Shown piece after piece: positions 335 through 55,430 of a stretch of DNA of 64,000 nucleotides. Position 1 is the first letter of the stretch; each line of letters starts with the position of its first letter. Under the pieces are notes generated by a model that saw nothing but the letters and a program-made list of their open reading frames with translations, ran no database searches and was not told where the DNA came from. The translations under genes and the position numbers were made by a program. Source of the stretch: a virus (Duplodnaviria > Caudoviricetes); the IMG/VR virus record IMGVR_UViG_3300027747_002427. One strand, 5' to 3'.

Positions 335-766
335 ATGTTATCATTTAAGGAGTATTTTGAAGAGGCGGAATTAACTCAAAGAACGGGTCATAAAGGGTTT
401 ACTGGAAGAGTGTTTGTTTACTTTAATATCAATCTTTCGGACAAATTAAAGACCCCCTATTTTTCTGTTAAGAATATGAGTACTGGAAGAGTCATTGGTC
501 ATGAGACTTCCTTTATGGTAAGAGATGCAACCTTTAAAGTTAGTGCAGCTGGTAATGAAAGAGTAAATCGAGAAGGTAAAAAGAATGTTCATGCTGGGGT
601 AGTGGGTTATTTGGTTCATGAAGAACCGCGTGCTCTTGACACCCCAGTTACCTATAATCCTTACAAATATAAAACTTTCGTTAAAGTGGCGGATGAAACT
701 CCAGTACATTCAGCGGATTTAGTTTCTTTTGCAAATAGAAGGCTTACAGCTGAAAATGTAAAATAG
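335..766 (+). CDS. Conserved phage hypothetical protein with CTS-like N-terminus
   Basis: 143 aa; FKVSAAGNERVNREGKKNVHAGVVG and TYNPYK motifs resemble a widespread phage family; starts MLSFKEYFEE; TAAATA 6 nt upstream. Confidence 0.6.
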   Translation: MLSFKEYFEEAELTQRTGHKGFTGRVFVYFNINLSDKLKTPYFSVKNMSTGRVIGHETSFMVRDATFKVSAAGNERVNREGKKNVHAGVVGYLVHEEPRALDTPVTYNPYKYKTFVKVADETPVHSADLVSFANRRLTAENVK

Positions 767-794: not shown

Positions 795-1622
795 ATGAAT
801 AAAGATCAAATTAACTTACAAGAAGTTTATAGTAGAATCTACCTTAAGGAAGATGAAAATTTTAGTGATCAAATAAATCCTTCAGCTCAAGAGAGAGCAG
901 AATCTGTTTATGGCGAAGAGATTCCACCTGTAGAAGGTGAGAGTGAAGAACTAGGAGAAGATTCTAATAATTCTGTCAAAATGCCCAACAGAGTAGCTCA
1001 TATGGTCAAGGTAATGAAGAGTAAGGGAGAATCTTCAGACTACGTTACGGGTTATCTTATGAGTATGATTCAGAATACTATTGATGTTCCTAATATGCCT
1101 AGCCTTCAAGATCAGATTGATTGGGCAATAAATCATTACGAAAAAAAGACTCTTCCTGAGGAAGATGAAACCCAAGAAAAGATGAACGAGGATTCTAAAT
1201 CAGGTTCTTACACTCTTTATTATAAAGATTCTGAAGCAAAGAAGACAAGTGCTTGGTATACATCTGAGACTTTAGAAGATTTAGTCAATCAAGTCAACAA
1301 AGGTAATAAAGGAATGGATTATGATTTGCCAGTTGTTGATGAAGACCGAGTATTTAAAAACAAGGAAGAGCTTTTAGATTTTTGTTCTCATAGTGACTTC
1401 TTTATCAAAGGACCGGATGGTAATTTAGTATCAGGTTATCCAGTTAAGCCAGGAGATTGGGAAAATGATATTAACGAGAAGAAGGAAAAATTTACAATTA
1501 ATACACCAACTCAAGGTCAATTGATTTCTAAGACTAGAGCACCAGTTCACAAGCCTACAATGCAAATCAAACCCAAGAAGGGAATATATAATCGCCAACA
1601 ATTCAAAAAGGATTATGAGTAA
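795..1622 (+). CDS. Acidic hypothetical protein with basic C-terminal tail
   Basis: 275 aa ORF, E/D-rich. Confidence 0.55.
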   Translation: MNKDQINLQEVYSRIYLKEDENFSDQINPSAQERAESVYGEEIPPVEGESEELGEDSNNSVKMPNRVAHMVKVMKSKGESSDYVTGYLMSMIQNTIDVPNMPSLQDQIDWAINHYEKKTLPEEDETQEKMNEDSKSGSYTLYYKDSEAKKTSAWYTSETLEDLVNQVNKGNKGMDYDLPVVDEDRVFKNKEELLDFCSHSDFFIKGPDGNLVSGYPVKPGDWENDINEKKEKFTINTPTQGQLISKTRAPVHKPTMQIKPKKGIYNRQQFKKDYE

Positions 1623-2067
1623 ATTCCAAAATCTCTATGAGTCACTTCTCTTAGAGATGCCACATATTTCTTTTGAAAAGAATGGCAAACATTTTGATTT
1701 TGATTTAGAATTAGAAAAACATCAGAAGGACTGGTATGGATTAGTGCGTTTAATGCATAATATTCTAGGGTCCAATTCAGTTAAAGACAAGTATGGTAAT
1801 GTTTTAAGTCTACAAACTTCAGATGAAAAGGAAGCATTTGTAGAAGAGTTAAGAAACAATCCTATGTTTACTACTTTCATTAAAAGGTTTTATAATAAAG
1901 ATTTTAATGATCTTTTAGATTTAAGTCATTATACTCCTAAAATAAACGTAGCACATAAGAACAATACAACACCACAAGGGACAACCAATTATGGCAAAGG
2001 TGTTTCTGCCAATTTAAAATCTTCTATGGGAGATCAATTACCAACGGGCAATAGTGCCGCTATGTAA
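1615..2067 (+). CDS. Hypothetical protein
   Basis: 150 aa ORF overlapping the upstream stop. Confidence 0.55.
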   Translation: MSKFQNLYESLLLEMPHISFEKNGKHFDFDLELEKHQKDWYGLVRLMHNILGSNSVKDKYGNVLSLQTSDEKEAFVEELRNNPMFTTFIKRFYNKDFNDLLDLSHYTPKINVAHKNNTTPQGTTNYGKGVSANLKSSMGDQLPTGNSAAM

Positions 2068-8763: not shown

Positions 8764-8997
8764 TTATTTTTCCGGTTTTAATTGCCCACCACGTCTTAAA
8801 GCTCCTCTATAATTAGAAGCTTGAAGTTTAGCTCTTTTAGAATTATGCTTTTTAACAACCCAATTACTTAATTTTTGTAATTTAGTAGAAGTTGATAACC
8901 CTTTTAAAGATACTCTAAATTTTTGCCAATCATCAGATGATACAGCTTTATCTATTTGCTGATGTGTTGCTTCATAAAAGAAGGTTTTGAAATTCAT
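8764..8997 (-). CDS. Small protein with CTS-like N-terminus; apparent paralog of 5811..6167
   Basis: MNFKTFFYEA...; TAAATA upstream. Confidence 0.55.
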   Translation of the reverse strand: MNFKTFFYEATHQQIDKAVSSDDWQKFRVSLKGLSTSTKLQKLSNWVVKKHNSKRAKLQASNYRGALRRGGQLKPEK

Positions 8998-18432: not shown

Positions 18433-18506
18433 GCCTGGTTAGTTTAATGGTAAAACGGTTGATTTGTAATCATCAAACAAGAGTTCGATTCTCTTACTAG
18501 GCTCCA
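18433..18506 (+). tRNA. tRNA-Thr(UGU)
   Basis: Acceptor GCCTGGT/ACTAGGC; loop TT-TGT-AA; GTTCGATT T-loop; CCA encoded. Confidence 0.88.
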
Positions 18507-18533
18507 CCATCCTTGTAGGGGGTAAGTATTTAT

Positions 18534-18662
18534 GTGCTTACTGTATTTGAAGGCGCTATGACGGGGTTGATGCTTATTCCCTTTGTAATTGGTTATATAA
18601 CTTTTTTAATATTTAAATATACTTGTAAAATTCTTCTTGCAATTATACGTAAACTATCATAG
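18534..18662 (+). CDS. 42-aa membrane peptide between tRNAs (GTG start)
   Basis: AGGGGGTAAGTATTTAT immediately upstream; hydrophobic core. Confidence 0.4.
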   Translation: MLTVFEGAMTGLMLIPFVIGYITFLIFKYTCKILLAIIRKLS

Positions 18663-18674
18663 TATATAAACCAT

Positions 18675-18746
18675 GTCCTCATAGTGTAGCGGTTAGCACC
18701 AGCCCCTTTCACGGGCTTAGCAGGGGTTCAAATCCCCTTGAGGATG
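18675..18746 (+). tRNA. tRNA-Glu(UUC)
   Basis: AGCCC-CTTTCAC-GGGCT anticodon arm; no encoded CCA. Confidence 0.9.
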
Positions 18747-18762
18747 TTAAATAATTTTATAT

Positions 18763-18852
18763 GGAAGCTTACTCAAGCGGTTTACGAGAGCGGTTTACTA
18801 AACCGCCGAGCCTTCATCGGCTCCGTGGGTTCGAATCCCACAGCTTCCTCCA
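18763..18852 (+). tRNA. tRNA-Ser(ACU), type II, A34
   Basis: GGAAGCT/AGCTTCC acceptor; GCGGT-TTACTAA-ACCGC arm; long variable arm; CCA encoded. Confidence 0.85.
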
Positions 18853-18855
18853 TAT

Positions 18856-18933
18856 GCGTCAATGCCTGAGAAGCCCAAAGGAAAGGTCTGCAAAACCTTA
18901 AAGCCGTAGGTGCAAATCCTACTTGACGCTCCA
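18856..18933 (+). tRNA. tRNA-Cys(GCA)
   Basis: AAGGT-CTGCAAA-ACCTT; U73; CCA. Confidence 0.88.
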
Positions 18934-18940
18934 TTTTAAC

Positions 18941-19029
18941 GGAAGTGTGTCTGAGTGGTTTAAAGAGTCAGTCTTGAAAACTGAAGAGGTCTAAAGCCTC
19001 CGTGGGTTCGAATCCCACCGCTTCCTCCA
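18941..19029 (+). tRNA. tRNA-Ser(UGA)
   Basis: TCAGT-CTTGAAA-ACTGA; long variable arm; CCA. Confidence 0.92.
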
Positions 19030-19052
19030 TATAAAAGGGGGTAAGTATTTAT

Positions 19053-19406
19053 ATGTTTACAAGAATTAAAGATACTCTCCAAGGTAAAGCTCCTATAACA
19101 GCTTCTCGCTCTCCTAAATGGAATGGTGTGAGAGATGCACATTTAAAACAACAACCTAATTGTGCAGTTTGCGAAGGTAATGAAAATCTTAATGTTCATC
19201 ATATTAAACCCTTTCATTTACACCCAGATTTAGAATTAGAACCTACTAATCTTATTACTCTTTGTGAATGTGAGAAGCATGGTGTTAATTGTCATTTACT
19301 CATTGGGCATTTAGGTAATTTTAGAAATGTTAATCCACATGTGTTAGAAGATGTTCCACTTTGGAATGCTAGACTAAAAGAAAAAAACAATAATCCAGAC
19401 TTATAG
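19053..19406 (+). CDS. HNH endonuclease inside tRNA cluster
   Basis: CAVC...VHHIKP...NLITLC...CHLLIGH. Confidence 0.85.
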   Translation: MFTRIKDTLQGKAPITASRSPKWNGVRDAHLKQQPNCAVCEGNENLNVHHIKPFHLHPDLELEPTNLITLCECEKHGVNCHLLIGHLGNFRNVNPHVLEDVPLWNARLKEKNNNPDL

Positions 19407-19454
19407 TTATTGCCTTACTGATGAAGATGTATTAATATATACATCATAAGCATC

Positions 19455-19529
19455 CGGGATGTAGCTCAGCTTGGCTAGAGCGCTTGGTTTGGGACCAAGA
19501 TGTCGTAGGTTCGAATCCTATCATCCCGA
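19455..19529 (+). tRNA. tRNA-Pro(UGG)
   Basis: CTTGG-TTTGGGA-CCAAG; CGGGATG/CATCCCG; no CCA. Confidence 0.93.
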
Positions 19530-19536
19530 AATTTAA

Positions 19537-19611
19537 TGTCGAGTAGCTCAGTGGTAGAGCGGAGAGCTGTTAACTCTTTGGTCGTAGGTTCAAATCCTAC
19601 CTCGACAGCCA
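19537..19611 (+). tRNA. tRNA-Asn(GUU)
   Basis: GAGAG-CTGTTAA-CTCTT; G73; CCA. Confidence 0.93.
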
Positions 19612-19648
19612 ACTTTTTTTGAAACTCTTAGGGTAAGTAATATCATCT

Positions 19649-20002
19649 ATGACCCTTTCTCCAGTAGTTTCCTCTCTCCCAGCCACTCCAAATATAGGGT
19701 GGAATAATTCTTGGGTTTCCGTACCCAATGACCAAAGTAGATCTTTATTTGCTCAAGCAATGTATAAAGTTAATGAATTAGGTAGTAATGGAATTACAGT
19801 TATTGCTGGGACTAATCAAGTAGATGGTAAATTTGGGGGTCTTCAAACAATAACTTCAACGGTTTTTGCAGGATTGACTTCTTCCGGGACTACAGCAGTA
19901 AGTGCGATATCTATTCCTACATTCCCAGCTGGGTTCGTTTTAAACGGCAATTTTACATCTATAAAATTAACAAGTGGTCAAGTCATTGCTTATAACGCTT
20001 AA
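19649..20002 (+). CDS. Small beta-rich probable virion protein
   Basis: C-terminal PAGFVLNGNFTSIKLTSGQVIAY; N-terminal module shared with 6421..7068. Confidence 0.5.
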   Translation: MTLSPVVSSLPATPNIGWNNSWVSVPNDQSRSLFAQAMYKVNELGSNGITVIAGTNQVDGKFGGLQTITSTVFAGLTSSGTTAVSAISIPTFPAGFVLNGNFTSIKLTSGQVIAYNA

Positions 20003-20004
20003 AT

Positions 20005-20012
20005 TATAAATA
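20005..20012 (+). promoter_or_regulatory. T4-type late promoter TATAAATA
   Basis: Exact T4 gp55 consensus, 7 nt before ATG 20020. Confidence 0.55.
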
Positions 20013-20019
20013 TAATATC

Positions 20020-20259
20020 ATGAGTATAAAAATAGTAACAAAACCAGAAGAATCATTAACAATTGAATCCGTAGAAGTAATAGCTGTAAGAGATTTATTT
20101 GACGAAAAAAAGATTATAGCTCGTATAGCAGGTCTCCCTAGAGGCGTTATCCTTTGGGAAGGAGATACAGAATATACAGCAGCCGGTAATTGGACAAATG
20201 AAACAGCAATAGCTAAGGCAAACGAGGTTATTAATTCCGGTTCTATTAAGTGGGCTTAA
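20020..20259 (+). CDS. Hypothetical protein
   Basis: 79 aa ORF with late motif. Confidence 0.5.
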   Translation: MSIKIVTKPEESLTIESVEVIAVRDLFDEKKIIARIAGLPRGVILWEGDTEYTAAGNWTNETAIAKANEVINSGSIKWA

Positions 20260-20277
20260 TTTAGCTTAAAAAACTAA

Positions 20278-20305
20278 TTGCATTTATTAATCATTTCTTT
20301 ATAAT
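20278..20305 (+). promoter_or_regulatory. sigma70-type promoter for purA
   Basis: TTGCAT-N16-TATAAT, ATG 6 nt later. Confidence 0.65.
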
Positions 20306-20311
20306 AAGGGA

Positions 20312-21310
20312 ATGATTAATTTTGTTGATATCATAGTAGGTCTTGCTTGGGGGGATGAAGGCAAAGGTAAAGTCTCAAGCGCTTTAGCCAAAGATTATGA
20401 CATGGTATGTCGTTGGAATGGTGGTCCAAATGCTGGTCATACGGTTTATCTAAATGATAAGAAATATAAAACACATCTGATTCCTTCTGGAGTATTTCAC
20501 GGTAAGCCTTCTATTATAGGTCCTAATTGTGTTATTAATATCAGCAAGTTTTGGGAAGAGATGGAATATCTTAAAGAGAATGGGTTTGATACTTCTTTAG
20601 TAAAAATTCATCCTCATGCTCATGTGATTACTAAAGATCATATTAAATTTGATTTGGATTATCTCAAACCAAAATTAGGAACAACCGGTCAAGGCATTGC
20701 TCCTTGTTATGCGGCAAAAGCAAATAGAGTAGGAGTTCAAATTAAAGATTCTTCGATTGATCCGATATATCATTGGAATGGAAAATTACAAGGTAAAATT
20801 CTTTGCGAAGGAGCACAAAGTATTTGGTTGGATATCAATTACGGGGATTATCCTTATGTAACAAGTTCTGAAACGTTTCCTCATAATGCTTGTTCTCTTG
20901 GATTTTCTCCAAAAAAGATCAGAGACATTATTGGAGTAGCAAAGATCTATGATACAAAAAGTGGTGTAGATCCTTTATTTCCAGAAACACTTTGGGACGA
21001 TCCTATTCTTGATAAAGTCATTGAAATTGGAGGAGAAGTAGGAACGACAACTGGAAGAAAAAGAATTGTAAACTGGCTAAATGTTAGAAAGCTAGTTGAG
21101 GCTATTAATCTTTCAGGAGTAACAAAGCTTATTATTAATAAGTGTGATGTACTAGAAAAGGTTGGCGAATTTAGATATAATTTTGATAATAATGGATTTG
21201 TATCAATTGGTCTTAATCCATTTAAGAAAAGTTTAACAAAAGATATAATAGAAAACACAGAACTTAAAGAAGAAGATATTGTATTTTCCGGTGACACGAC
21301 TAAAATATAA
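20312..21310 (+). CDS. purA: Adenylosuccinate synthetase (short form)
   Basis: GDEGKGK, GGPNAGHT, EGAQ, PYVTSS, GTTTGRKR. Confidence 0.92.
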   Translation: MINFVDIIVGLAWGDEGKGKVSSALAKDYDMVCRWNGGPNAGHTVYLNDKKYKTHLIPSGVFHGKPSIIGPNCVINISKFWEEMEYLKENGFDTSLVKIHPHAHVITKDHIKFDLDYLKPKLGTTGQGIAPCYAAKANRVGVQIKDSSIDPIYHWNGKLQGKILCEGAQSIWLDINYGDYPYVTSSETFPHNACSLGFSPKKIRDIIGVAKIYDTKSGVDPLFPETLWDDPILDKVIEIGGEVGTTTGRKRIVNWLNVRKLVEAINLSGVTKLIINKCDVLEKVGEFRYNFDNNGFVSIGLNPFKKSLTKDIIENTELKEEDIVFSGDTTKI

Positions 21311-21312
21311 CC

Positions 21313-21627
21313 ATGAGTAATTCCACATCATCAGCCTTCAAAGGCATTCCCACTAAACTTACAAACAATCCAGAGGTTGTTGAAGAAATTCTTCTTACAG
21401 AAGTTCCTGTAATTGATGAGACTTTATTAGAAACACCATCTACTGAAACACCTATAGTTGAAGTACCAATTGCAGAAGGTTCATTATTAGAGAATCCTAT
21501 TATTGATGAAACTTTATTAGAAGAAGGTTCTTTAGAAGAACAACATAAAGATCTTTTGAAGAAAGAGGAAAGTGTTTTGGAAAGAAAGATTGAAGTTTTA
21601 GAAGAACTTAAAACTTTAATTTCTTAA
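21313..21627 (+). CDS. Highly acidic repeat protein
   Basis: Repeated PxIDETLLE / EGSLLE units. Confidence 0.5.
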   Translation: MSNSTSSAFKGIPTKLTNNPEVVEEILLTEVPVIDETLLETPSTETPIVEVPIAEGSLLENPIIDETLLEEGSLEEQHKDLLKKEESVLERKIEVLEELKTLIS

Positions 21628-21635
21628 AAATTTAT

Positions 21636-21706
21636 TTCCTGGTGGTGTAATGGTAGCACAAGAGTTTTTGGCACTCTTTGTCGAGGTTCGAGTCCTTGCC
21701 GGGAAG
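21636..21706 (+). tRNA. tRNA-Gln(UUG)
   Basis: AGAGT-TTTTGGC-ACTCT; TTCCTGG/CCGGGAA; no CCA. Confidence 0.9.
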
Positions 21707-21714
21707 CTTTTTAG

Positions 21715-21743
21715 TTGATATTCCTTTATAAAACATTTAATAT
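21715..21743 (+). promoter_or_regulatory. sigma70-type early promoter
   Basis: TTGATA-N17-TAATAT-ATAAACA-ATG, same layout as 9014. Confidence 0.65.
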
Positions 21744-21750
21744 ATAAACA

Positions 21751-22107
21751 ATGAGCGAAGAAAATACAAAGACAGTAAGACTAATGGAATCCTTTACCAC
21801 ATATGAGTGCCATGGAGACATTAAACTTAATCTTGATATTTTCCCGGAATTGAAAGATAAGACAAATCAAGAAATTCAAACTTGGTTAAATGAAAATTCT
21901 GGTAATCTTTATATTGATTGTTATAGCCAAGAACTTCGCAAAGATCAATATTATATATATTCCCAAGAAGAATTAGATGATATGTTGGTTAATGGAGAAG
22001 ATCCTGAAATAGATGATAGTGTAATAGAACTTTCAGAATATTGGTCAAATACGGAAGTGATTTGGGATAAAATCAAGTGTGAAGAAAAGACTTTGCATGT
22101 ACAATAA
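21751..22107 (+). CDS. Acidic hypothetical protein
   Basis: 118 aa ORF. Confidence 0.5.
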   Translation: MSEENTKTVRLMESFTTYECHGDIKLNLDIFPELKDKTNQEIQTWLNENSGNLYIDCYSQELRKDQYYIYSQEELDDMLVNGEDPEIDDSVIELSEYWSNTEVIWDKIKCEEKTLHVQ

Positions 22108-22114
22108 TTTAAAT

Positions 22115-22199
22115 GGGTAGATCGCATAGCGGCAATTGCCGGAGACTGTAAATCTCCTCTCCTCGGAGTTCGAAGGTTCGAGTCCTTCTCTGCCCACCA
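22115..22199 (+). tRNA. tRNA-Tyr(GUA)
   Basis: GGAGA-CTGTAAA-TCTCC; variable arm; CCA. Confidence 0.92.
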
Positions 22200-22203
22200 T
22201 TTT

Positions 22204-22872
22204 ATGAAAATTAAAACTAAACTTACAAAAATTTGTACAGGTGTTTATCTTTGCGAAATTGATAATGCTTATGATTTGGCAATGACTTTTTGTAGGGTTC
22301 AAGAATTTTATGAATCTTCTTTTGAGCAAATAAGAGGCAAAAATTTTAATATGATGGAATTTCAAAGAATTTATTCTTTGAAAAATGGAGGAACTTTTAC
22401 ATATCCTGAAGACTGGTCTGGTTTTAATATTCCTAGTGGTATTTTAGATAAATTTTATAAAGGTTCTTGGGTTCAGACAGATTGGAATATGTATGATTCA
22501 GTATTAAAAAAAGTGATCAATCAAATAAAAGAAAACAAACCTTATTATTTGATAGGGACACAGAAAAAGGATCAAGATACCATCAATCATGAATTATGTC
22601 ATGCGTTTTATAAATTAGATAAAAAATATAAAAAAAGTGTAACCAAACTTATTAATAGTATTCCAAGAAGACTTTTAGATAAAATGAAAAATGTTCTTCG
22701 TAAAACCGGATATTGCGATAATGTATTAAGAGATGAAATACAAGCATATCTTTCCTGTGACCAAGCCTTTTTAGGCGATGCAATAAGATCCGATTGGGAG
22801 AAAATAGAAAAGTGGGGTATTGTTTTTGAAAAACATTTTAATAAACATATTACCCTAAATATAAAGAAATGA
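22204..22872 (+). CDS. Zincin-like (HExxH) hypothetical protein
   Basis: INHELCHAFY motif; downstream DEIQAY. Confidence 0.55.
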   Translation: MKIKTKLTKICTGVYLCEIDNAYDLAMTFCRVQEFYESSFEQIRGKNFNMMEFQRIYSLKNGGTFTYPEDWSGFNIPSGILDKFYKGSWVQTDWNMYDSVLKKVINQIKENKPYYLIGTQKKDQDTINHELCHAFYKLDKKYKKSVTKLINSIPRRLLDKMKNVLRKTGYCDNVLRDEIQAYLSCDQAFLGDAIRSDWEKIEKWGIVFEKHFNKHITLNIKK

Positions 22873-24008
22873 ACTTTAAAGATTTCTATAACAACGAAGA
22901 AGGACACATGGTTCTTGTTAAAGACGTTGAGATTAGTGAGGCGTTATCATATCACCTGAAACATAAATTAACCTTAAGTGAAAATGCTTTTAGAATATAT
23001 TCAGATCAATACTTTGCTTTAATTCAAGAAGCTAGAGATCTTTATAATCAAGATGCCTTGGCTTTAAATGACGAAGATGTAGAATTAGTTGAATCTTCTT
23101 TAGGTGAAAAAGCAATTTACAACGGAAGAGAAGTTTATTTAGAAGCCCCTCTTTATCTAAGTGAGGATATTATATTAGAAGCAACATTGGAGCCTAATTC
23201 TATTGATACAACAATTTATGTTGATATGGATGGGGTTTTAGCTGATTTAAGAAAAGCAGTTTGTCAATATGTTGGTAAAGATCATGTTGAAGACGAAGAT
23301 TATGACAAATATTTCTTAGATCATAAAGACAATATAAAAGATTGTTTTAGAAATCTTACAAAATTCGATTCAACAGATTATTTAATTAAGCTTGTTTCGG
23401 ATGTTGCAGGGTCTTATAAAATTTGTTCATCGCCTTTAAGAAGTGATAGAGAAAATTCATCCATCGGAAAAAGTGAATGGTTAGAATCCAATTTAGAAAT
23501 TAAACCTTTAGAGAAAATTTTTACAGGCCGCAAAGAGTCCTATGCTACTACAAACGGCAAACCTAATATTTTAATAGATGATAAAGAAAAAAATATTAGA
23601 AGGTGGGAAGATAAAGGCGGAATAGGAATTCTTTATTCGGCAGAACATGATAGTCTAGACACAATTGTTCAAGGTTTAGAAAGAGCTAAAAAAATATTAA
23701 TGGGTGAAAGTACAATTACAGAAGCTATTAAAAATGGTAAAAAAGTAAAACTCGGCCATCCATTTAGAACCCCAGGAGGTCCTAAGAAATTTGCCGTTTA
23801 TGTTAAGACACCCAAAGGTTCTATCAAGAAAGTAACCTTTGGAGATCCTAATATGAAGGTTCGTAATAATAATAAAGCTAGAGCTAAATCATTTAGAGCA
23901 AGACATAAATGTTCTCAAAAGAAAGATAGAACAACGGCTGGTTATTGGAGCTGTAATGTTTCTCGATATCGTAAAGCTTTAGGTTTAAAATCTTCAAGAG
24001 TCTGGTAA
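22869..24008 (+). CDS. Multidomain protein: CTS-like N-domain + HAD 5'(3')-deoxyribonucleotidase-like + DUF6321-like basic C-domain
   Basis: MNFKDFY; IYVDMDGVLAD, ICSSP, K, ILIDD HAD motifs; KKFAVYVK...TFGDPNMK...RAKSFRARHKC...YWSC. Confidence 0.75.
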   Translation: MNFKDFYNNEEGHMVLVKDVEISEALSYHLKHKLTLSENAFRIYSDQYFALIQEARDLYNQDALALNDEDVELVESSLGEKAIYNGREVYLEAPLYLSEDIILEATLEPNSIDTTIYVDMDGVLADLRKAVCQYVGKDHVEDEDYDKYFLDHKDNIKDCFRNLTKFDSTDYLIKLVSDVAGSYKICSSPLRSDRENSSIGKSEWLESNLEIKPLEKIFTGRKESYATTNGKPNILIDDKEKNIRRWEDKGGIGILYSAEHDSLDTIVQGLERAKKILMGESTITEAIKNGKKVKLGHPFRTPGGPKKFAVYVKTPKGSIKKVTFGDPNMKVRNNNKARAKSFRARHKCSQKKDRTTAGYWSCNVSRYRKALGLKSSRVW

Positions 24009-24271
24009 TGAGCCTTCCGTTTCAGCAAGAAAGGATATCTGATAAAGAAGTTATCAGATCATTTTCAGAATTTATAGATGAAGAAGATTTAAAATGGCAT
24101 TTTGATAAAGAAGACAGAATAGTTGAAGCTTTAGAACCTACGGATTGGTTAATTCAATTTGATAACCAATTACCCCAATTAATAGAAGGCAAAATAGAAA
24201 TCCCTGCTGGAATATATCACAGAGTAATAAAAGGAAAAAAAGATTTTAAAATTAAAATTAAAATGTCTTGA
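24008..24271 (+). CDS. Cupin-like small protein
   Basis: WHFDKEDRIVE...IPAGIYHRVIKG pattern. Confidence 0.6.
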   Translation: MSLPFQQERISDKEVIRSFSEFIDEEDLKWHFDKEDRIVEALEPTDWLIQFDNQLPQLIEGKIEIPAGIYHRVIKGKKDFKIKIKMS

Positions 24272-24296
24272 TCTTTCTTATCAGGTGTATTAATAT
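24268..24296 (+). promoter_or_regulatory. sigma70-type promoter for tRNA-Val/Ala
   Basis: TTGATC-N17-TAATAT-AAAC. Confidence 0.6.
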
Positions 24297-24307
24297 AAAC
24301 ATGATAT

Positions 24308-24383
24308 GCACGAGTAGCTCAGTGGTAGTAGCGTTTCGCTTACACCGAAAATGTCGGGGGTTCGAATCCCTCCTCGTGTACCA
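24308..24383 (+). tRNA. tRNA-Val(UAC)
   Basis: TTTCG-CTTACAC-CGAAA; CCA. Confidence 0.92.
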
Positions 24384-24384
24384 T

Positions 24385-24457
<73 letters not shown>

Positions 24458-24467
24458 CTCCACTATT

Positions 24468-25027: not shown

Positions 25028-25549
25028 ATGCATAAAGATTTAGAAAATATATTATTCTCAAAAATTTCCCTTTCAGCAAAAATTAAATCTCTTGGAAGAA
25101 CTATTAGTAAAGATTACAAAGAAGAGCCTTTAACTATTATCAGTCTTATGGCTGGTAGTATTTTATTTACAGCTGATTTAATAAGGGAAATCAATATTCC
25201 AATTCAATTATACACTATAACAGTCTCAAGTTATAATGGAGAAAAAATAAGTTCAGGGACGCTCAATATTCAAGGGCATATACCAGATTGTAAAGATAAA
25301 AACGTTTTAATAGTAGATGATATTTTAGATTCCGGTTTAACTCTTTATACGTTAAAAAACCGATTAAATGAATTGAATCCCAAATCAGTTAAAACTTGTG
25401 TTTTATTAAATAAGAAAATTGAAAGACCATATACAATAGATCCTGATTATTATGGATTTGAAATAGGAGAAGAATTTGTTGTAGGTTATGGATTAGATTA
25501 TCAGGGACTATATAGAAATATCCCTTATATTGGTACTCTTAAGAATTAA
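25028..25549 (+). CDS. hpt: Hypoxanthine phosphoribosyltransferase
   Basis: VLIVDDILDSGLTL PRPP loop; FVVGYGLDY...YRNIPYI. Confidence 0.92.
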   Translation: MHKDLENILFSKISLSAKIKSLGRTISKDYKEEPLTIISLMAGSILFTADLIREINIPIQLYTITVSSYNGEKISSGTLNIQGHIPDCKDKNVLIVDDILDSGLTLYTLKNRLNELNPKSVKTCVLLNKKIERPYTIDPDYYGFEIGEEFVVGYGLDYQGLYRNIPYIGTLKN

Positions 25550-26141: not shown

Positions 26142-26538
26142 AATATCTTGGGAAGAATATGCTTTAAAAATAGCAGAAGTAGCTTCATTAAGAAGTGAGG
26201 ATCCTCGTACTAAAGTAGGTTGCTGTTTACTTCGCACAGATAATACCGTAGCTAGTTTAGGTTATAATGGAGCTCCAGCTGGAGTGGAAATAGAATGGAA
26301 TAACCGTGAAGAAAAACACAAAAGGGTTATTCACGCAGAGATTAATGCTCTTAGAATGGTTAAACCAGGAGAGTGTTATCTAGCAGCAGTAACTCATTCT
26401 TGTTGCAATGATTGTTTAAAATCTTTAGCAGCCTACGGAATCAAAAAAATAATTTATAAAACTCATTACGATACAGGCACCTCATATTCATTTACAGAGA
26501 TAGCCAAAGATTTCGGAATTGAAGTAGTAAATTTATGA
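26134..26538 (+). CDS. dCMP deaminase
   Basis: SEDPRTKVG, GYNG, HAEINAL, CNDC. Confidence 0.88.
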   Translation: MNRISWEEYALKIAEVASLRSEDPRTKVGCCLLRTDNTVASLGYNGAPAGVEIEWNNREEKHKRVIHAEINALRMVKPGECYLAAVTHSCCNDCLKSLAAYGIKKIIYKTHYDTGTSYSFTEIAKDFGIEVVNL

Positions 26539-26730
26539 TTTACGGTGGCTTTGTTTCCACCATTTACACCAACCATTTGGTTTAATATCACCAGCTACAG
26601 CTGAACACTTATTAGGCGAACGCCACATAGTACATTCATCACAGCGTTGACCCTTTACAGTGTGATCAACGTAACCTGCTTCTGATTTAGGATGTTTGGC
26701 TTTTTCTTCTATAAATGTTTTGAAATTCAT
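26533..26730 (-). CDS. High-potential iron-sulfur protein (HiPIP) with CTS-like N-terminus
   Basis: Y...GQRCDECTMW.SPNKCSAVAGDIKPNGWCKWW = C-x2-C-x8-C-x12-C with GWC. Confidence 0.8.
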   Translation of the reverse strand: MNFKTFIEEKAKHPKSEAGYVDHTVKGQRCDECTMWRSPNKCSAVAGDIKPNGWCKWWKQSHRKS

Positions 26731-26738
26731 AGAATTAT

Positions 26739-28412
26739 TTATGCCTCACAACTCTTACAAGTCATAATTGAACGAGCAAGTTCTTTTGCTGGGTTAGAAC
26801 TTCTCTGATAATAGAGACTTTTAATTCCATTTTCCCATGCAAAAATGATAAGCTCATTTACTGCTTTAGGCGGTGTTCCTGCTGGAATCATAAGATTCAA
26901 ACTTTGACCCTGATCAATATATTTTTGTCTAGCAGATGCTTGAATAACAATTTCTTTTTGAGAAGTTTCAGCAAAGGTTTTAAATACATCTTTTTCTTCT
27001 TGAGTAAGAAAATTAAGATGTTGAATTGATCCTCCATGAGTTAGAATATCTTTCCAGGTTTCTTCGTCATTCTTATCTTTGGATTTGAGTAATGCTTTAA
27101 GATAAGGATTTTTATAAGTGAATTTGCCCTTTGCTAAATCTTTAACAAAGTAATTTGATTCTAAAGGTTCAATACTTGGAGATACTTGACCAAGAATAAA
27201 TGAACTAGAGGTTGTAGGAGCTACCGCTAAAGTAGTCGTATTTCTACGATTGCAACCTTTTAGTAATTCTGGTTCTCCTATTAATTCGGAAAGATCTTTA
27301 GTTGCTTTGTCTGCTCTTTCTCTTATGGTTTTCCAAATAGTTGAATTAAGAAGCTTTGCTTCCATGGATTCAAATGCAATCATTTTAGATTGTAAAAGTG
27401 AATGCCAACCGAGAATACCAAGACCTAATGCTCTATGCCTTACTGCAAAATTTCTAGGCGCATCCATAAAAGGCATACCTTCGGTTTTATTAATAAATTC
27501 TGACATAACAGCATCCAAGAAATAAATCATCGTTTCTACTGCATCAGTATCTTTCCATTCTTCCCACTTTTCCAAATTCATAGAAGAAAGATCACAAACA
27601 AATGATTCTTCTTCATTATTAGGAAGCATAATTTCTGTACAAAGATTAGAATGATTAATCTTCATCTTTGCATCTTTATAAACTTGCGGAGCTTGATTGT
27701 TTACATTATCGGTAAAGAAAATATAAGGATAACCAGATTCAAAACGCTTCTTAAGAACAAGACCCCAAATTCTACGCTTTTCTTTATCTCCTTCAATCAT
27801 AGATTTCATCCATTCATCGGTAATGGTAACACCGATAGAAAGATTTTGAATACTGTTTCCTTCTGAGCGAATAGCTAAGAATTCTTCTATGTCCTTATGA
27901 TCAATAGGAAGATATGAAGCAAAAGACCCACGACGAACATTCCCTTGAGAAATGACACTCATGAGGCTTTCAAAGAGTTCCATGAAATGAACCGTACCTG
28001 TAGATTCACCACCTGATGAGATAGGTTCTCCTCTGCCTCTTAAGGAGCCGAAATAAGCTGAAGTACCTCCACCTCCTTTTGTCATCATTCCAACTTCTGA
28101 AACCTTTTCTAAGATACCTTCCATGGTATCTGGAATATGAGAACCGAAGCAAGAAATAGGAAGACCTCTTTTACGACCGAAATTAGACCAAATAGGAGAT
28201 GCTAAAGAATAAAATCCTCTATGCATGTAATCTTCAAACTTTTTTGCAAATTTTGTATCGCCTGTAAATTCTACTAAAATCTTTTGAGCAGCTTTTGCTA
28301 TATCATGAATTCTTTGTTCTGGTGTTTCGTCTTCTAAAAGATAACCTCTCTGGAGAAATTTTCTTGAATCCTTGTTTAGCCAATAAATGTTGCTTGTTGC
28401 CTCTGTAGTCAT
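26739..28412 (-). CDS. nrdA: Class I ribonucleotide reductase alpha subunit
   Basis: PISCF, GGGTS, SQGNVRRG, SNLCTEI, APTTSSS, SLYYQRS, C-terminal CKSCE. Confidence 0.95.
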   Translation of the reverse strand: MTTEATSNIYWLNKDSRKFLQRGYLLEDETPEQRIHDIAKAAQKILVEFTGDTKFAKKFEDYMHRGFYSLASPIWSNFGRKRGLPISCFGSHIPDTMEGILEKVSEVGMMTKGGGGTSAYFGSLRGRGEPISSGGESTGTVHFMELFESLMSVISQGNVRRGSFASYLPIDHKDIEEFLAIRSEGNSIQNLSIGVTITDEWMKSMIEGDKEKRRIWGLVLKKRFESGYPYIFFTDNVNNQAPQVYKDAKMKINHSNLCTEIMLPNNEEESFVCDLSSMNLEKWEEWKDTDAVETMIYFLDAVMSEFINKTEGMPFMDAPRNFAVRHRALGLGILGWHSLLQSKMIAFESMEAKLLNSTIWKTIRERADKATKDLSELIGEPELLKGCNRRNTTTLAVAPTTSSSFILGQVSPSIEPLESNYFVKDLAKGKFTYKNPYLKALLKSKDKNDEETWKDILTHGGSIQHLNFLTQEEKDVFKTFAETSQKEIVIQASARQKYIDQGQSLNLMIPAGTPPKAVNELIIFAWENGIKSLYYQRSSNPAKELARSIMTCKSCEA

Positions 28413-28443: not shown

Positions 28444-29415
28444 TTAAAACAAGTCTGATTCGTCAAAAGATTGATTCTTTTTTGAGTACTCAACTGGACG
28501 AGAATGGAAAAAGTCGGTCATGTTATTTCCAAGAAGCTCTTCTTCAAACCATTTAGTTTTGCTTAATAATTCCTTATCAACTTCAAAAACCGGTTTGAAC
28601 TTAATTTGTTTGAGAGAATCATTAATACGATTCTTAATAAATTCTTTAAGAATAGGTGCAGTAAGATTTTCTTCTTTAATACCGTTAACCATCCAATCAA
28701 CAATTTCTGATTCGGATTCAAAAGCTTGCTTTGCTTCATGTGCAATCTTTGCTTCCAATTCTTCATCAAAAAGCTCTGGATACTCTTCTCTAATTGTATT
28801 AATGATTCTAGTACCAACAAGTCCATGAATCTGTTCTTCGTTACGAGTATACTTTACTTGTTGATCAGTATCCTTTAAGACATTCTTAAATCTCGCAAAC
28901 CAATTAATGACATAGAATTGTGAGAATAGAGAAACATTCTCAACGAACAATGTAAATAAGATTAAAGCATAAAGATATTGCTTCTTGGAATCCTTATAGA
29001 AGCGATGTGTATACTTTCTAAGATATTTTACACGACCTTCAATCCAATCTAACTTGAGGTTCTCTTCAAAAATATCTTCCAAGCCAAGAGCTGAAATTAA
29101 TCTTTCATATGCATTGTTATGAATAACTTCCACGTTAGCCATTACATATCCAAGATCAGAAAGTGATGGGTGAGGAAGATTCTCACCAAGTTTTGCCCAA
29201 AAGGTTTTGACTGCTATTTCAATTTGACCGATAGCTGAGAGAGTACGGATAACAATTTCTCTTTCCTGATCATTAAGATTTACTTTAAATTGTTGAATAT
29301 CAGATTTAAAATTGAATTCTTTGTCGGTCCAAAAGCCGTTGTGCATGGCTTCAATAAATTCTTCTGTCCAAGGATAAAGGTTAGGTTTGCGTGAAATTTG
29401 TTCATTGAATATCAT
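28444..29415 (-). CDS. nrdB: Class I ribonucleotide reductase beta subunit
   Basis: FWTDKE, EVIHNNAY, FVENVSLFSQF, NEEQIH, C-terminal DLF. Confidence 0.95.
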   Translation of the reverse strand: MIFNEQISRKPNLYPWTEEFIEAMHNGFWTDKEFNFKSDIQQFKVNLNDQEREIVIRTLSAIGQIEIAVKTFWAKLGENLPHPSLSDLGYVMANVEVIHNNAYERLISALGLEDIFEENLKLDWIEGRVKYLRKYTHRFYKDSKKQYLYALILFTLFVENVSLFSQFYVINWFARFKNVLKDTDQQVKYTRNEEQIHGLVGTRIINTIREEYPELFDEELEAKIAHEAKQAFESESEIVDWMVNGIKEENLTAPILKEFIKNRINDSLKQIKFKPVFEVDKELLSKTKWFEEELLGNNMTDFFHSRPVEYSKKNQSFDESDLF

Positions 29416-36203: not shown

Positions 36204-36611
36204 TTAAGCTACTGCTCCGGGTACTGTTGTTTGAATTGCGTTAGATGATGGAGAACTTGTTGCAGGAGTAGTTGGAGTTGCAGGAGTAGTTGGTGTTGTA
36301 GTCGAACTCGGTTGACTTCCTGCTATTTTAACATCTAATCCAGATTTTGTTAAAAGTTCTAAAGCGGTTTTTTGATCTTCTGGACTAAGACTAGAAAATT
36401 TAGTAGGTGTTTTATCGTTTAAAACATCAGCCATTTTTGTTAAGATGTCATGATTCTCACCACCTTGTGTACCTAATTTGTCAAAAGTAGCATTTACAAT
36501 CTTTTGTGTTTGAGATGGTAAATTCTTTATAGCATTACCTGCTTGATTTAATGTAGCGGATGTTACATTGGTTTCGGCTTCGTTTATTATTTGATCAAAT
36601 TTTGTCATCAT
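36204..36611 (-). CDS. Hypothetical late protein with T/P-rich tail
   Basis: MTKFDQIINEAE; TTPATP repeats. Confidence 0.5.
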   Translation of the reverse strand: MMTKFDQIINEAETNVTSATLNQAGNAIKNLPSQTQKIVNATFDKLGTQGGENHDILTKMADVLNDKTPTKFSSLSPEDQKTALELLTKSGLDVKIAGSQPSSTTTPTTPATPTTPATSSPSSNAIQTTVPGAVA

Positions 36612-53076: not shown

Positions 53077-54177
53077 ATGGAGCCAATCAAGGGTATACAT
53101 TTAGGATTAGTAGTTAGTAGTTCTCCGGATCCAGAAGGAAGAAATAGAGTTCAAGTATGGGTACCACATTTATCCAATACACTTTATGGACCTTTAAATC
53201 AAAAATTAAAAGATGTAAAATTTAAAGGCCCAGAAGATTTAAATACTATAGACAAAGACATTTTAATTACTTTACAAACCACATTGCCTTGGGCAGAATA
53301 TGGAGCACCTTTATTTGGAGGTTCTAGCGGAGCTTTTAACACTGCTACCGGACAAACAGCAGTCAATAGTGGTTCTACTTTTCAAGGCAGTGGTAATGCT
53401 GCTCCTTTTTTGCCTACAGCTTCTGCAAATATGAAGACAGATGGTACTAAACCAGCTACGCCTTCTGCTGGAGTTATTACAGCATCAAGAACCCAACCCA
53501 CTCTCACCCAAAGAGGTATTAGTTTTGCCTCTGGAATTATAAATTTGGCTTTACCAGATGGTACAACGAAACAATATCCTTTTAATAATGGCGGTGGTGG
53601 AGCGGGTGCAATACCTGCTGGGAATTACACAATTTCAAATCCTCAAATAAGAAATACACCAGGGATGGTTGTAGATGGAGTAGGTTATTCTTTTAATTTA
53701 AGTGATATTTATGATCCAGCAGCCGGTCGTAATAGAACTGAACTTCGTATACATCCAGATGGAGGGGCTACAGGAACCGCTGGATGTATTGGTATTGTAG
53801 GTGATGGTAATACTCAATCTCAATTTTATAAAGATTTAAATTCCGTTTTAGCAGCTAATGGTGGTGTTTATAATTTAAACATAGTAAATGATCTTCCGGG
53901 AGATGGAACTGGTAAAATTAATGATCCGGATCCTACAAAACCAAGTGTTTCTACTGGTAGTACATCTGGAGCAAAAGGTGTAGTATATCCAGATAGATCT
54001 GCTGCTGTAGGTTGTGTTCCAAGTAATGTAGGTACACCGGGATCTCCTGTAGGAACTTTTTCTACTCCTAATGGTGGAACAAAAGTTTGGGTGTTCTTCA
54101 TGGGCGGCGATGCTCAGAGACCAGTTTATTTTGCTCAGTCCCCTAATCCAGGAGATGTAAATGCTTTACGCGGTTAA
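53077..54177 (+). CDS. gp5-type OB-fold protein with inserted Tlde1/L,D-transpeptidase-like domain
   Basis: GLVV...DPEGRNRVQVW...LPWAE and PNGGTKVWVFFMGGD..PVYF OB halves; insert IPAGNY...RIHPDGGATGTAGCIG. Confidence 0.8.
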   Translation: MEPIKGIHLGLVVSSSPDPEGRNRVQVWVPHLSNTLYGPLNQKLKDVKFKGPEDLNTIDKDILITLQTTLPWAEYGAPLFGGSSGAFNTATGQTAVNSGSTFQGSGNAAPFLPTASANMKTDGTKPATPSAGVITASRTQPTLTQRGISFASGIINLALPDGTTKQYPFNNGGGGAGAIPAGNYTISNPQIRNTPGMVVDGVGYSFNLSDIYDPAAGRNRTELRIHPDGGATGTAGCIGIVGDGNTQSQFYKDLNSVLAANGGVYNLNIVNDLPGDGTGKINDPDPTKPSVSTGSTSGAKGVVYPDRSAAVGCVPSNVGTPGSPVGTFSTPNGGTKVWVFFMGGDAQRPVYFAQSPNPGDVNALRG

Positions 54178-54179
54178 AA

Positions 54180-55430
54180 ATGGAACCTGATTACGACATA
54201 CATTTAGGTTTAGTAGTTAGTAGTTCTCCAGATCCTGAAGGAAGAAATAGAGTTCAAGTTTGGATTCCTTATTTGTCTAACACGCTTTATGGACCTTTAA
54301 ATCAAAAATTAAAAGACGTGCATTTTAAAGGACCAGAAGATTTAAATAATATAGATAAAGATATTTTAACTATATTACAAACCACATTACCTTGGGCAGA
54401 ATGCGCCGCTCCTTTGTTCGGTGGTTCTAGTGGAGCTTTTAACACTGCTACCGGGCAAACAGCAGTCAATAGTGGTTCAACAGTTCAAGGTAGTGGTAAT
54501 GCTGTTCCGTCTTTACCTACTGCAACACCAAATATGAATGTCACCGGGATCAAACCAGATAATATTAATGGTTCTTACGGAAATGCTAGTAGTCTTGGTC
54601 TTCCTTCTGGTTGGAATAAAGAATCTGCTTATGATAAACAAGGTAGACTTGCTACAAAAGGTAATACATTACAATTTATATCAGCTCAAGAGTTGCACAA
54701 TATAAATTTAAATGCAGCACAAAATGGAGGTCTAGCAGGTTTAGCTGCTCCGAAAGATTCTAGTTATTTTACACCAGGTACAACAACAACTGCTGCTCAA
54801 TGGGCAAATTATATGGATGCTATAGCTTTGCATGAAAACGTCGGTCTTGGAGGAGGTAAGGGAGGAGGTACATACTCTTCAGTAAATGGTTATATACCAA
54901 TTAATGTAACATATAATGAAGGTTATAAAAACAATGGACCGATACATTGGTCTGAAGGTATATATCAAATGACTGTAGGGGAAAATGGATTGAATAGTGA
55001 TAACATTTATGATCCAAATGCTCAGGCAGCAGCTTTTACACAAAGAGCACGAGATTTTGCAGTTATAGCAGGTGCTAAAAAAGGAGATTGGTCAATAGGT
55101 GATAGTGGTATTGCTGCTTATGGATGGAACAGGGCTGCAAATGATGTAGCAGCAGCAAATGGTAATAATTCTAATGATTTATTAAATAATGTTTCTTTGC
55201 CTCAAGGTGCACAAAGTAATGGAACCCGACCAATAACTTATACGGATAAATCAGCAGCAGTAGGTTGTCAACCCAGCAATGTAGGTGCACCTGGTGCTCC
55301 TGTAGGAACCTTTTCTATCCCAAATGGTGGAACAAAAGTTTGGGTATTCTTTATGGGTGGAGATATACAAAAGCCGGTTTATTTTGCTCAAGCCCCAAAT
55401 CCCGGGGATATAAATGCCCTACGAGGTTAA
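54180..55430 (+). CDS. gp5-type OB-fold paralog with inserted lysozyme/SLT-like domain
   Basis: Same OB halves; insert AIALHEN...SEGIYQM...IYDPNAQAAA. Confidence 0.72.
   Translation: MEPDYDIHLGLVVSSSPDPEGRNRVQVWIPYLSNTLYGPLNQKLKDVHFKGPEDLNNIDKDILTILQTTLPWAECAAPLFGGSSGAFNTATGQTAVNSGSTVQGSGNAVPSLPTATPNMNVTGIKPDNINGSYGNASSLGLPSGWNKESAYDKQGRLATKGNTLQFISAQELHNINLNAAQNGGLAGLAAPKDSSYFTPGTTTTAAQWANYMDAIALHENVGLGGGKGGGTYSSVNGYIPINVTYNEGYKNNGPIHWSEGIYQMTVGENGLNSDNIYDPNAQAAAFTQRARDFAVIAGAKKGDWSIGDSGIAAYGWNRAANDVAAANGNNSNDLLNNVSLPQGAQSNGTRPITYTDKSAAVGCQPSNVGAPGAPVGTFSIPNGGTKVWVFFMGGDIQKPVYFAQAPNPGDINALRG

Follow-up and report, generated by a model that had tools for sequence, protein, structure and literature searches.

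In phototrophs and iron oxidisers, HiPIPs are known to shuttle electrons in the periplasm. Among solved structures, the closest to the protein described here is PioC of Rhodopseudomonas palustris TIE-1 (PDB 6xyv), a 54-residue electron carrier of photoferrotrophy. Small redox proteins are also found beside the ribonucleotide reductase genes nrdAB, namely the 2Fe-2S ferredoxin YfaE and the flavodoxin NrdI. The internal proteins IPI, IPII and IPIII of phage T4 are small basic proteins without a metal cofactor; they carry an N-terminal leader of about 10 residues, their packaging and processing are proven, and they enter the host cell at infection. Mutagenesis of the T4 leader assigned targeting to residues 4 and 7 and processing to residues 8 and 10 (PMC9026906). 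Head cargo of another kind is provided by the multidomain polyvalent and MuF-type proteins, whose description mentions no HiPIP and no Fe-S domain (Iyer et al. 2017, PMC5512222). Our literature searches for HiPIPs in a phage, virion, MuF or portal context returned nothing relevant, and no paper on phage HiPIPs was found.

Here, we analyse a HiPIP-like gene in a 64-kb stretch of viral DNA (64,000 nucleotides, hereafter the window). The gene lies on the minus strand at 26533–26730 (65 codons; stop codon 26533–26535) and its product begins MNFKTFIEEK. In this protein, a leader resembling the one that T4 uses for head loading replaces the Tat signal, and the HiPIP probably travels inside the virion, to be injected together with the DNA. 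Its most likely identity is a late, head-loaded internal protein, a reading to which the sequence evidence gives about an even chance. The window is AT-rich (30–36% G+C) and encodes a tail sheath, a gp19-like tail tube, T4-type baseplate proteins, a large terminase, PhoH, 11 tRNAs and nucleotide-metabolism genes. The virus is a large T4-like freshwater phage; no close relative of it was found among deposited phages.

Is the protein a HiPIP? The original prediction described a 65-residue product with the spacing of short HiPIPs and a GWC..W ending, and every element of that description proved correct. The translation reads Y20-x9-C30-x2-C33-x8-C42-x12-C55 and ends G53-W54-C55-K-W-W58 (Y20, 26671–26673; C30, 26641–26643; C33, 26632–26634; C42, 26605–26607; C55, 26566–26568). 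It thereby contains the HiPIP signature, C-x2-C-x8-16-C-x10-13-C with a G-[WY]-C-x2-aromatic end. A search with the Pfam HIPIP model (PF01355) aligned residues 16–58 to profile positions 25–65 with 23.8 bits (E 5.6e-5), a marginal pass of the 22-bit gathering cut-off. This marginal pass is backed by a profile built from an alignment of 89 diverse family members, which matches PioC with an E of 5e-18 and also matches three other solved HiPIPs. The NCBIfam Iro model (NF041615, HiPIP-type iron oxidase) gave 34.5 bits, far below its cut-off of 100. A word-indexed search recovered 16 close homologs at 69–86% identity, the gene was located at 67 viral-contig loci in IMG/VR, and an exhaustive profile search yielded 1576 cluster representatives at E≤1e-3. 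Together with the Pfam score, these homologs indicate that 26533–26730 is not a chance ORF.

In the 89-member alignment, Y20, C30, C33 and C42 are invariant and C55 is nearly so. Y20 is invariant in both family alignments and corresponds to the cluster-packing Tyr19 of Chromatium HiPIP. The AlphaFold (AF2) model has a mean pLDDT of 85, rising above 90 for residues 11–60 and falling to 56 for residues 1–10, so that the leader is its sole low-confidence part. When this model was compared with the PDB using Foldseek, the best 18 matches were all HiPIPs, with 1isu at the top (TM 0.68/0.71, rmsd 1.1, 55 columns); PioC superimposed with a TM of 0.66–0.78 and an rmsd of 1.8 over 50 columns. The core of the window protein has the length of PioC, its Tyr and four-Cys pattern and its GWC end. 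We are thus highly confident that the window protein belongs to the HiPIP family, as the original prediction had proposed. Its most likely cofactor is a single oxygen-tolerant [4Fe-4S] cluster bound by Cys30, Cys33, Cys42 and Cys55.

In metagenome atlases, 45 purely viral clusters are already annotated automatically as HiPIP-domain proteins; PHROGs returned no family for the protein. When 50,697 deposited phage records were searched by tblastn with three different family members, the sole match was the cultured Synechococcus phage S-SRM01 (QPX48026). In one clade of relatives (L013 5977–6345, L014 2926–3288, L024 5992–6360), the HiPIP domain is followed by a very basic C-terminal stretch of about 55 residues, with a conserved RYLNYHC at its end.

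How does the phage protein differ from its bacterial relatives? Classical Tat signals (SRRSVLQG, TRRGLFG) are found on bacterial members of the 89-sequence alignment, and PioC-type bacterial relatives such as P0064 and P0080 carry a Tat signal and are periplasmic. As predicted from the first reading, the window protein has neither a twin arginine nor a hydrophobic stretch at its N-terminus. Instead, it is more basic and starts with a 9-residue leader, MNFKTFIEE (codons 1–9, 26704–26730, minus strand), a candidate capsid-targeting propeptide with a predicted cleavage after I7-E8-E9. The HiPIP core follows (codons 10–65, 26536–26703).

The likeness of this N-terminus to a capsid-targeting sequence, also part of the original prediction, was borne out by the T4 record, in which MKTYQEFIAE opens both IPII and IPIII and MKTFKEF opens IPI. 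In both phages two aromatics stand three apart and are followed by I or L, any residue and E; beyond the leader, the T4 internal proteins have no sequence similarity to the HiPIP. The window version, aromatic-x-x-aromatic-I-x-E, is one residue shorter, so that F3, F6, I7 and E9 correspond with an offset of one to Y4, F7, I8 and E10 of IPII/IPIII. The S-SRM01 homolog (MKSFQEFLFEEE / MKSFQEFLFE) matches T4 in register, with F4, F7, L8 and E10. The head-loading idea is directly testable, since the leader of the homolog in this cultured phage follows the T4 type almost exactly. Other homologs start with MKTFKEFYES, MVKTFKQFLAES, MKTFNQILSE or MKSFRDFLTE. Residue 9 of the window protein, where the leader ends, is equivalent to the first residue of the solved PioC chain. 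An [LI]-x-E motif lies N-terminal to the domain in 38 of 39 distinct viral-contig proteins that hold a HiPIP domain, a count that says little for the long multidomain forms because their N-terminal stretch spans hundreds of residues.

The leader motif is not restricted to the HiPIP gene. A strict version of it was matched 5 times at N-termini in the window, against 0.17 expected from internal protein positions. In the complete 217-kb IMG/VR contig G002, the strict motif was matched just 2 times, by the pair of genes lying immediately upstream of HiPIP. Unrelated neighbouring genes of one genome tend to have alike leaders, FKEF in G002, FKQF in L024 and MRLxELFE in L052, which is the pattern that a shared recognition signal would give. 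As with the T4 internal-protein genes, leader-bearing genes are clustered in some HiPIP relatives. Related phages have small-gene arrays with common N-termini of a second type, M..KD..LLAEAY, besides the MSFKQF type (L030 4154–7649, L002 4867–8994); these arrays look like hyperplastic loci of leader-tagged small proteins. Within the window, leader-like starts (MLSFKEYFEE, MNFKTFFYE, MNFKDFYNNEE, MMTKFDQIINE, MSKFQNLYES) were seen on five unrelated ORFs, located at 335–766 (+), 8764–8997 (−), 22869–24008 (+), 36204–36611 (−) and 1615–2067 (+); the first-listed leader-like ORF matches Pfam Phage_L5_gp82. The 22869–24008 product (379 aa) joins its leader to a 5'-deoxyribonucleotidase domain and a basic phrog_7595 domain, and the latter domain also constitutes the leader-bearing 88-aa protein beside the HiPIP gene in G002.

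Several observations weigh against reading the leader as a packaging label. A scan of about 40% of the T4 genome with the strict motif returned genes 61.1 and 61.4 in addition to ipII and ipIII. Gene 61.1 (54 aa; L100 18966–19130) starts MKTFKEFIKED and is not a known head protein. Because the motif heads this T4 product and the 379-aa nucleotidase fusion of the window, proteins that need not be packaged, it is not proof of packaging. Leaders rich in K, F and E are moreover favoured by AT-rich codon usage. Finally, charge does not clearly set the mature core apart from periplasmic relatives, since leader-bearing, bare and Tat-type cores have median pI values of 9.1, 8.9 and 8.8.

Does the phage possess the machinery that such a leader would address? 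The window and G002 have 25 orthologs in common, including baseplate genes, with conserved order and identities of 52% (TerL), 41% (sheath) and 45% (tube). G002 and three other large HiPIP-bearing contigs (4 of 4) all encode a Peptidase_S77 protein of the gp21 type (101–118 bits), a Gp23 protein (231–312 bits) and a gp55 homolog. Homologs of gp21, gp23 and gp55 were not found within the 64-kb window, so that we infer the T4-type head of this phage, with its gp21-type protease, from these relatives. T4 cleavage sites read LIE9 in gp21, IAE9 in gp22, LRE10 in gp24 and LTE65 in gp23; the G002 counterparts are LVE8 in the protease, LKE10 in the scaffold and LRE, followed by AG, in the capsid protein. 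These L-x-E sites suggest that the specificity of the prohead protease is probably kept in the relatives as in T4.

A late-promoter-like motif of the T4 type, CATAAATA, lies at 26736–26743 on the minus strand, 13 nt upstream of the HiPIP ATG and overlapping the nrdA stop codon; its first base is C, versus T in T4. ATAAATA is depleted in the window (23 copies versus 49±6.7 expected), and six window ORFs, among them tail sheath, tail tube and the HiPIP gene, have NATAAATA 13–23 nt before their ATG. The same motif stands 12–14 nt upstream in 8 of 27 distinct HiPIP homologs, and in several further homologs it precedes the overlapping upstream gene instead. In G002, an exact TATAAATA precedes the sheath and prohead protease genes; directly upstream of the HiPIP cluster the exact motif was not found, and only AATAAATA occurs there, before the preceding 88-aa gene. 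Late promoters drive non-structural genes too. As a motif argument, a copy at a spacing similar to that before the sheath and tube genes points to late transcription of the HiPIP gene, apart from the nrdBA unit.

Head loading would then proceed as follows. The HiPIP gene would be transcribed late from its own NATAAATA promoter, and the leader, taking the place of the Tat signal, would dock the protein onto the scaffolding core of a T4-type prohead. A gp21-type protease would cut the leader off after I-E-E9, leaving a basic 56-residue mature HiPIP in the head with the DNA. Like the T4 internal proteins, it would enter the host cell at infection. Once delivered, the protein could be a one-electron redox effector or, equally a guess, could act early in infection as a small module that is stabilised by its cluster and binds DNA or protein. 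Nothing in the present data favours the other role raised by the original prediction, protection of the particle from oxidation.

HiPIP domains in other phages bear on this proposal. Among the best 150 of the 1576 family representatives, fused HiPIP domains keep the Tyr and the four Cys. Their partners are portal and/or MuF domains (P0062, P0075, P0081, P0089, P0092, P0113), XkdF-type prohead proteases (P0058, P0082), DUF2213 (P0122), GH19 with or without LysM (P0033, P0034, P0050), Acb1 (P0060), polymorphic-toxin-type pyrophosphatases (InPase; P0091, P0108) and ParB-like domains. P0062 lies between terminase and protease plus capsid genes on two independent contigs. These partners (MuF, portal, ParB-like, pyrophosphatase, 2H/Acb1 and lysozyme-type domains) are hub domains of packaged polyvalent proteins (Iyer et al. 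2017, PMC5512222). Very long multidomain viral-contig proteins also embed a HiPIP domain. Six such ORFs in IMG/VR (L047, L051, L059, L063, L067, L069; 974–2115 aa), each with one embedded HiPIP-like domain, have a cytidyltransferase-like N-terminus and ParB-like DGHHR motifs and are candidate polyvalent proteins.

The fusions give independent support for head packaging of the HiPIP domain. They occur in distant phages with other head types, whereas the window protein is a solo domain, and they could mean that the HiPIP domain serves phages more generally and is not specific to heads. Extending the proposal beyond the window, we suggest tentatively, and at rather less than an even chance, that the PioC-type HiPIP domain belongs, so far unrecognised, among the head-carried, injected proteins of tailed phages, loaded by a leader in T4-like phages and by fusion to portal, MuF or protease in HK97-type phages. 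An air-stable Fe-S redox centre would thereby reach the cell envelope or the cytoplasm as soon as infection begins. If so, a host target, for example a component of defence or respiration, could be oxidised or reduced by the delivered HiPIP, or the HiPIP could act as a redox sensor. A phage-borne, signal-less HiPIP built for capsid loading would give the family a new setting and the injected phage proteins their first metal-cluster redox member; it would add one more domain to the catalogue of early-delivered phage effectors and bear on the iron content of aquatic virus particles.

Alternatively, and this is the main rival to head loading, the HiPIP may be a cytoplasmic, non-packaged redox helper that passes single electrons to phage or host enzymes, the leader being merely a structural or translation-friendly extension. 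Such a helper would need no export signal, and the window HiPIP has none; many homologs have neither leader nor signal (for three signal-less short homologs, the short contigs around them gave an uninformative context), and the leader motif of the window also heads an enzyme fusion. A candidate partner exists in the neighbourhood: the commonest gene order in relatives is a 215-aa gene, an 80-aa gene, HiPIP, a 5'-nucleotidase-like gene and, two genes downstream of HiPIP in most relatives, a 2OG-Fe(II) oxygenase. In most other relatives, the 80-aa gene overlaps the HiPIP start by ATGA. Pfam searches gave a weak 2OG-Fe(II) oxygenase match for the downstream flanking gene and no match for the HiPIP-flanking 80-aa, 215-aa, 88-aa and 195-aa products. 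The window lineage, however, has lost the oxygenase neighbourhood and yet keeps the HiPIP gene. A cytoplasmic role would also leave unexplained a T4 targeting and cleavage pattern that ends exactly where mature PioC begins, the leader common to neighbouring unrelated genes of one genome, and the repeated fusion of the domain to portal, MuF and prohead protease. We therefore regard this alternative as unlikely, if well short of negligible.

Could the domain act in the head without any redox role? A metal held by the cysteines, Fe-S or zinc, might simply stabilise a very small basic domain that binds DNA, portal or scaffold as an anchor or plug inside the capsid. In keeping with this, in fusions with portal, MuF and protease the HiPIP domain can be N-terminal, C-terminal or internal, the mature window protein has a net charge of about +7 by direct count on the translation, and some relatives have long, very basic C-terminal tails. 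Against it, the window protein retains the cluster-shielding residues typical of redox-active HiPIPs (Tyr20, W36, W54, W57/W58), and its nearest solved relative, PioC, is a working electron carrier. A purely structural module thus appears improbable.

The original prediction also placed the gene directly behind nrdB-nrdA and suggested that its product might serve the NrdB cofactor. The arrangement was confirmed by coordinates and Pfam: nrdB (28444–29415, minus strand, 323 aa; Ribonuc_red_sm, E 3e-45) is followed by nrdA (26739–28412, minus strand, 557 aa, stop 26739–26741; Ribonuc_red_lgC, E 1e-96), and the HiPIP start codon lies 8 nt (26731–26738) past the nrdA stop on the same strand. The service to NrdB fared less well. 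A survey of relatives found HiPIP adjacent to nrdA/nrdB at only 2 of 77 loci (L011 and L012), both from the lineage of the window and with nrdA 96–100% identical to its own. In G002, about 170 kb separate the HiPIP gene from an nrdA of another type (22% identity). When the window was compared with L011, 41 of 93 differences fell in the 5' half of the HiPIP gene while nrdA was nearly identical. L011, a metagenome contig, has 3 differences in nrdA over 1.9 kb, whereas the region at window positions 26600–26740 diverges, with a different, longer leader in L011 (MKFDSLINFLLEE). The nrdA-HiPIP junction marks a recombination edge, or a cassette exchange at the leader. With a linkage limited to one lineage and such an edge, the nrdA adjacency is a recent, lineage-specific feature; the position of the HiPIP gene behind the RNR genes looks accidental, and nrdA is probably not functionally tied to it.

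Thus, despite the 8-nt, same-strand spacing found in the window, L011 and L012, it is very improbable that the HiPIP is a dedicated class I RNR partner, co-transcribed with nrdB-nrdA and acting as a YfaE- or NrdI-like electron helper at NrdB, given the rarity of the linkage, the recombination edge, the distance in G002, the late-promoter-like motif in the junction, a fold and cofactor other than those of YfaE and NrdI, and HiPIP potentials far too high for YfaE-like reduction of diferric NrdB. Conversely, we hold with considerable confidence that the HiPIP is not an RNR accessory.

Two further features of the window were noted outside the HiPIP locus. The 11 tRNA genes are interspersed over 18433–24458 with an adenylosuccinate-synthase-like gene (20312–21310), and a hypoxanthine phosphoribosyltransferase-like gene (25028–25549) lies near this cluster. 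On the plus strand, 53077–54177 and 54180–55430 are adjacent paralogs with nearly the same N-termini, both ending in a Phage_base_V (VgrG/gp5 OB) domain; the pair is a duplicated baseplate spike or hub gene.
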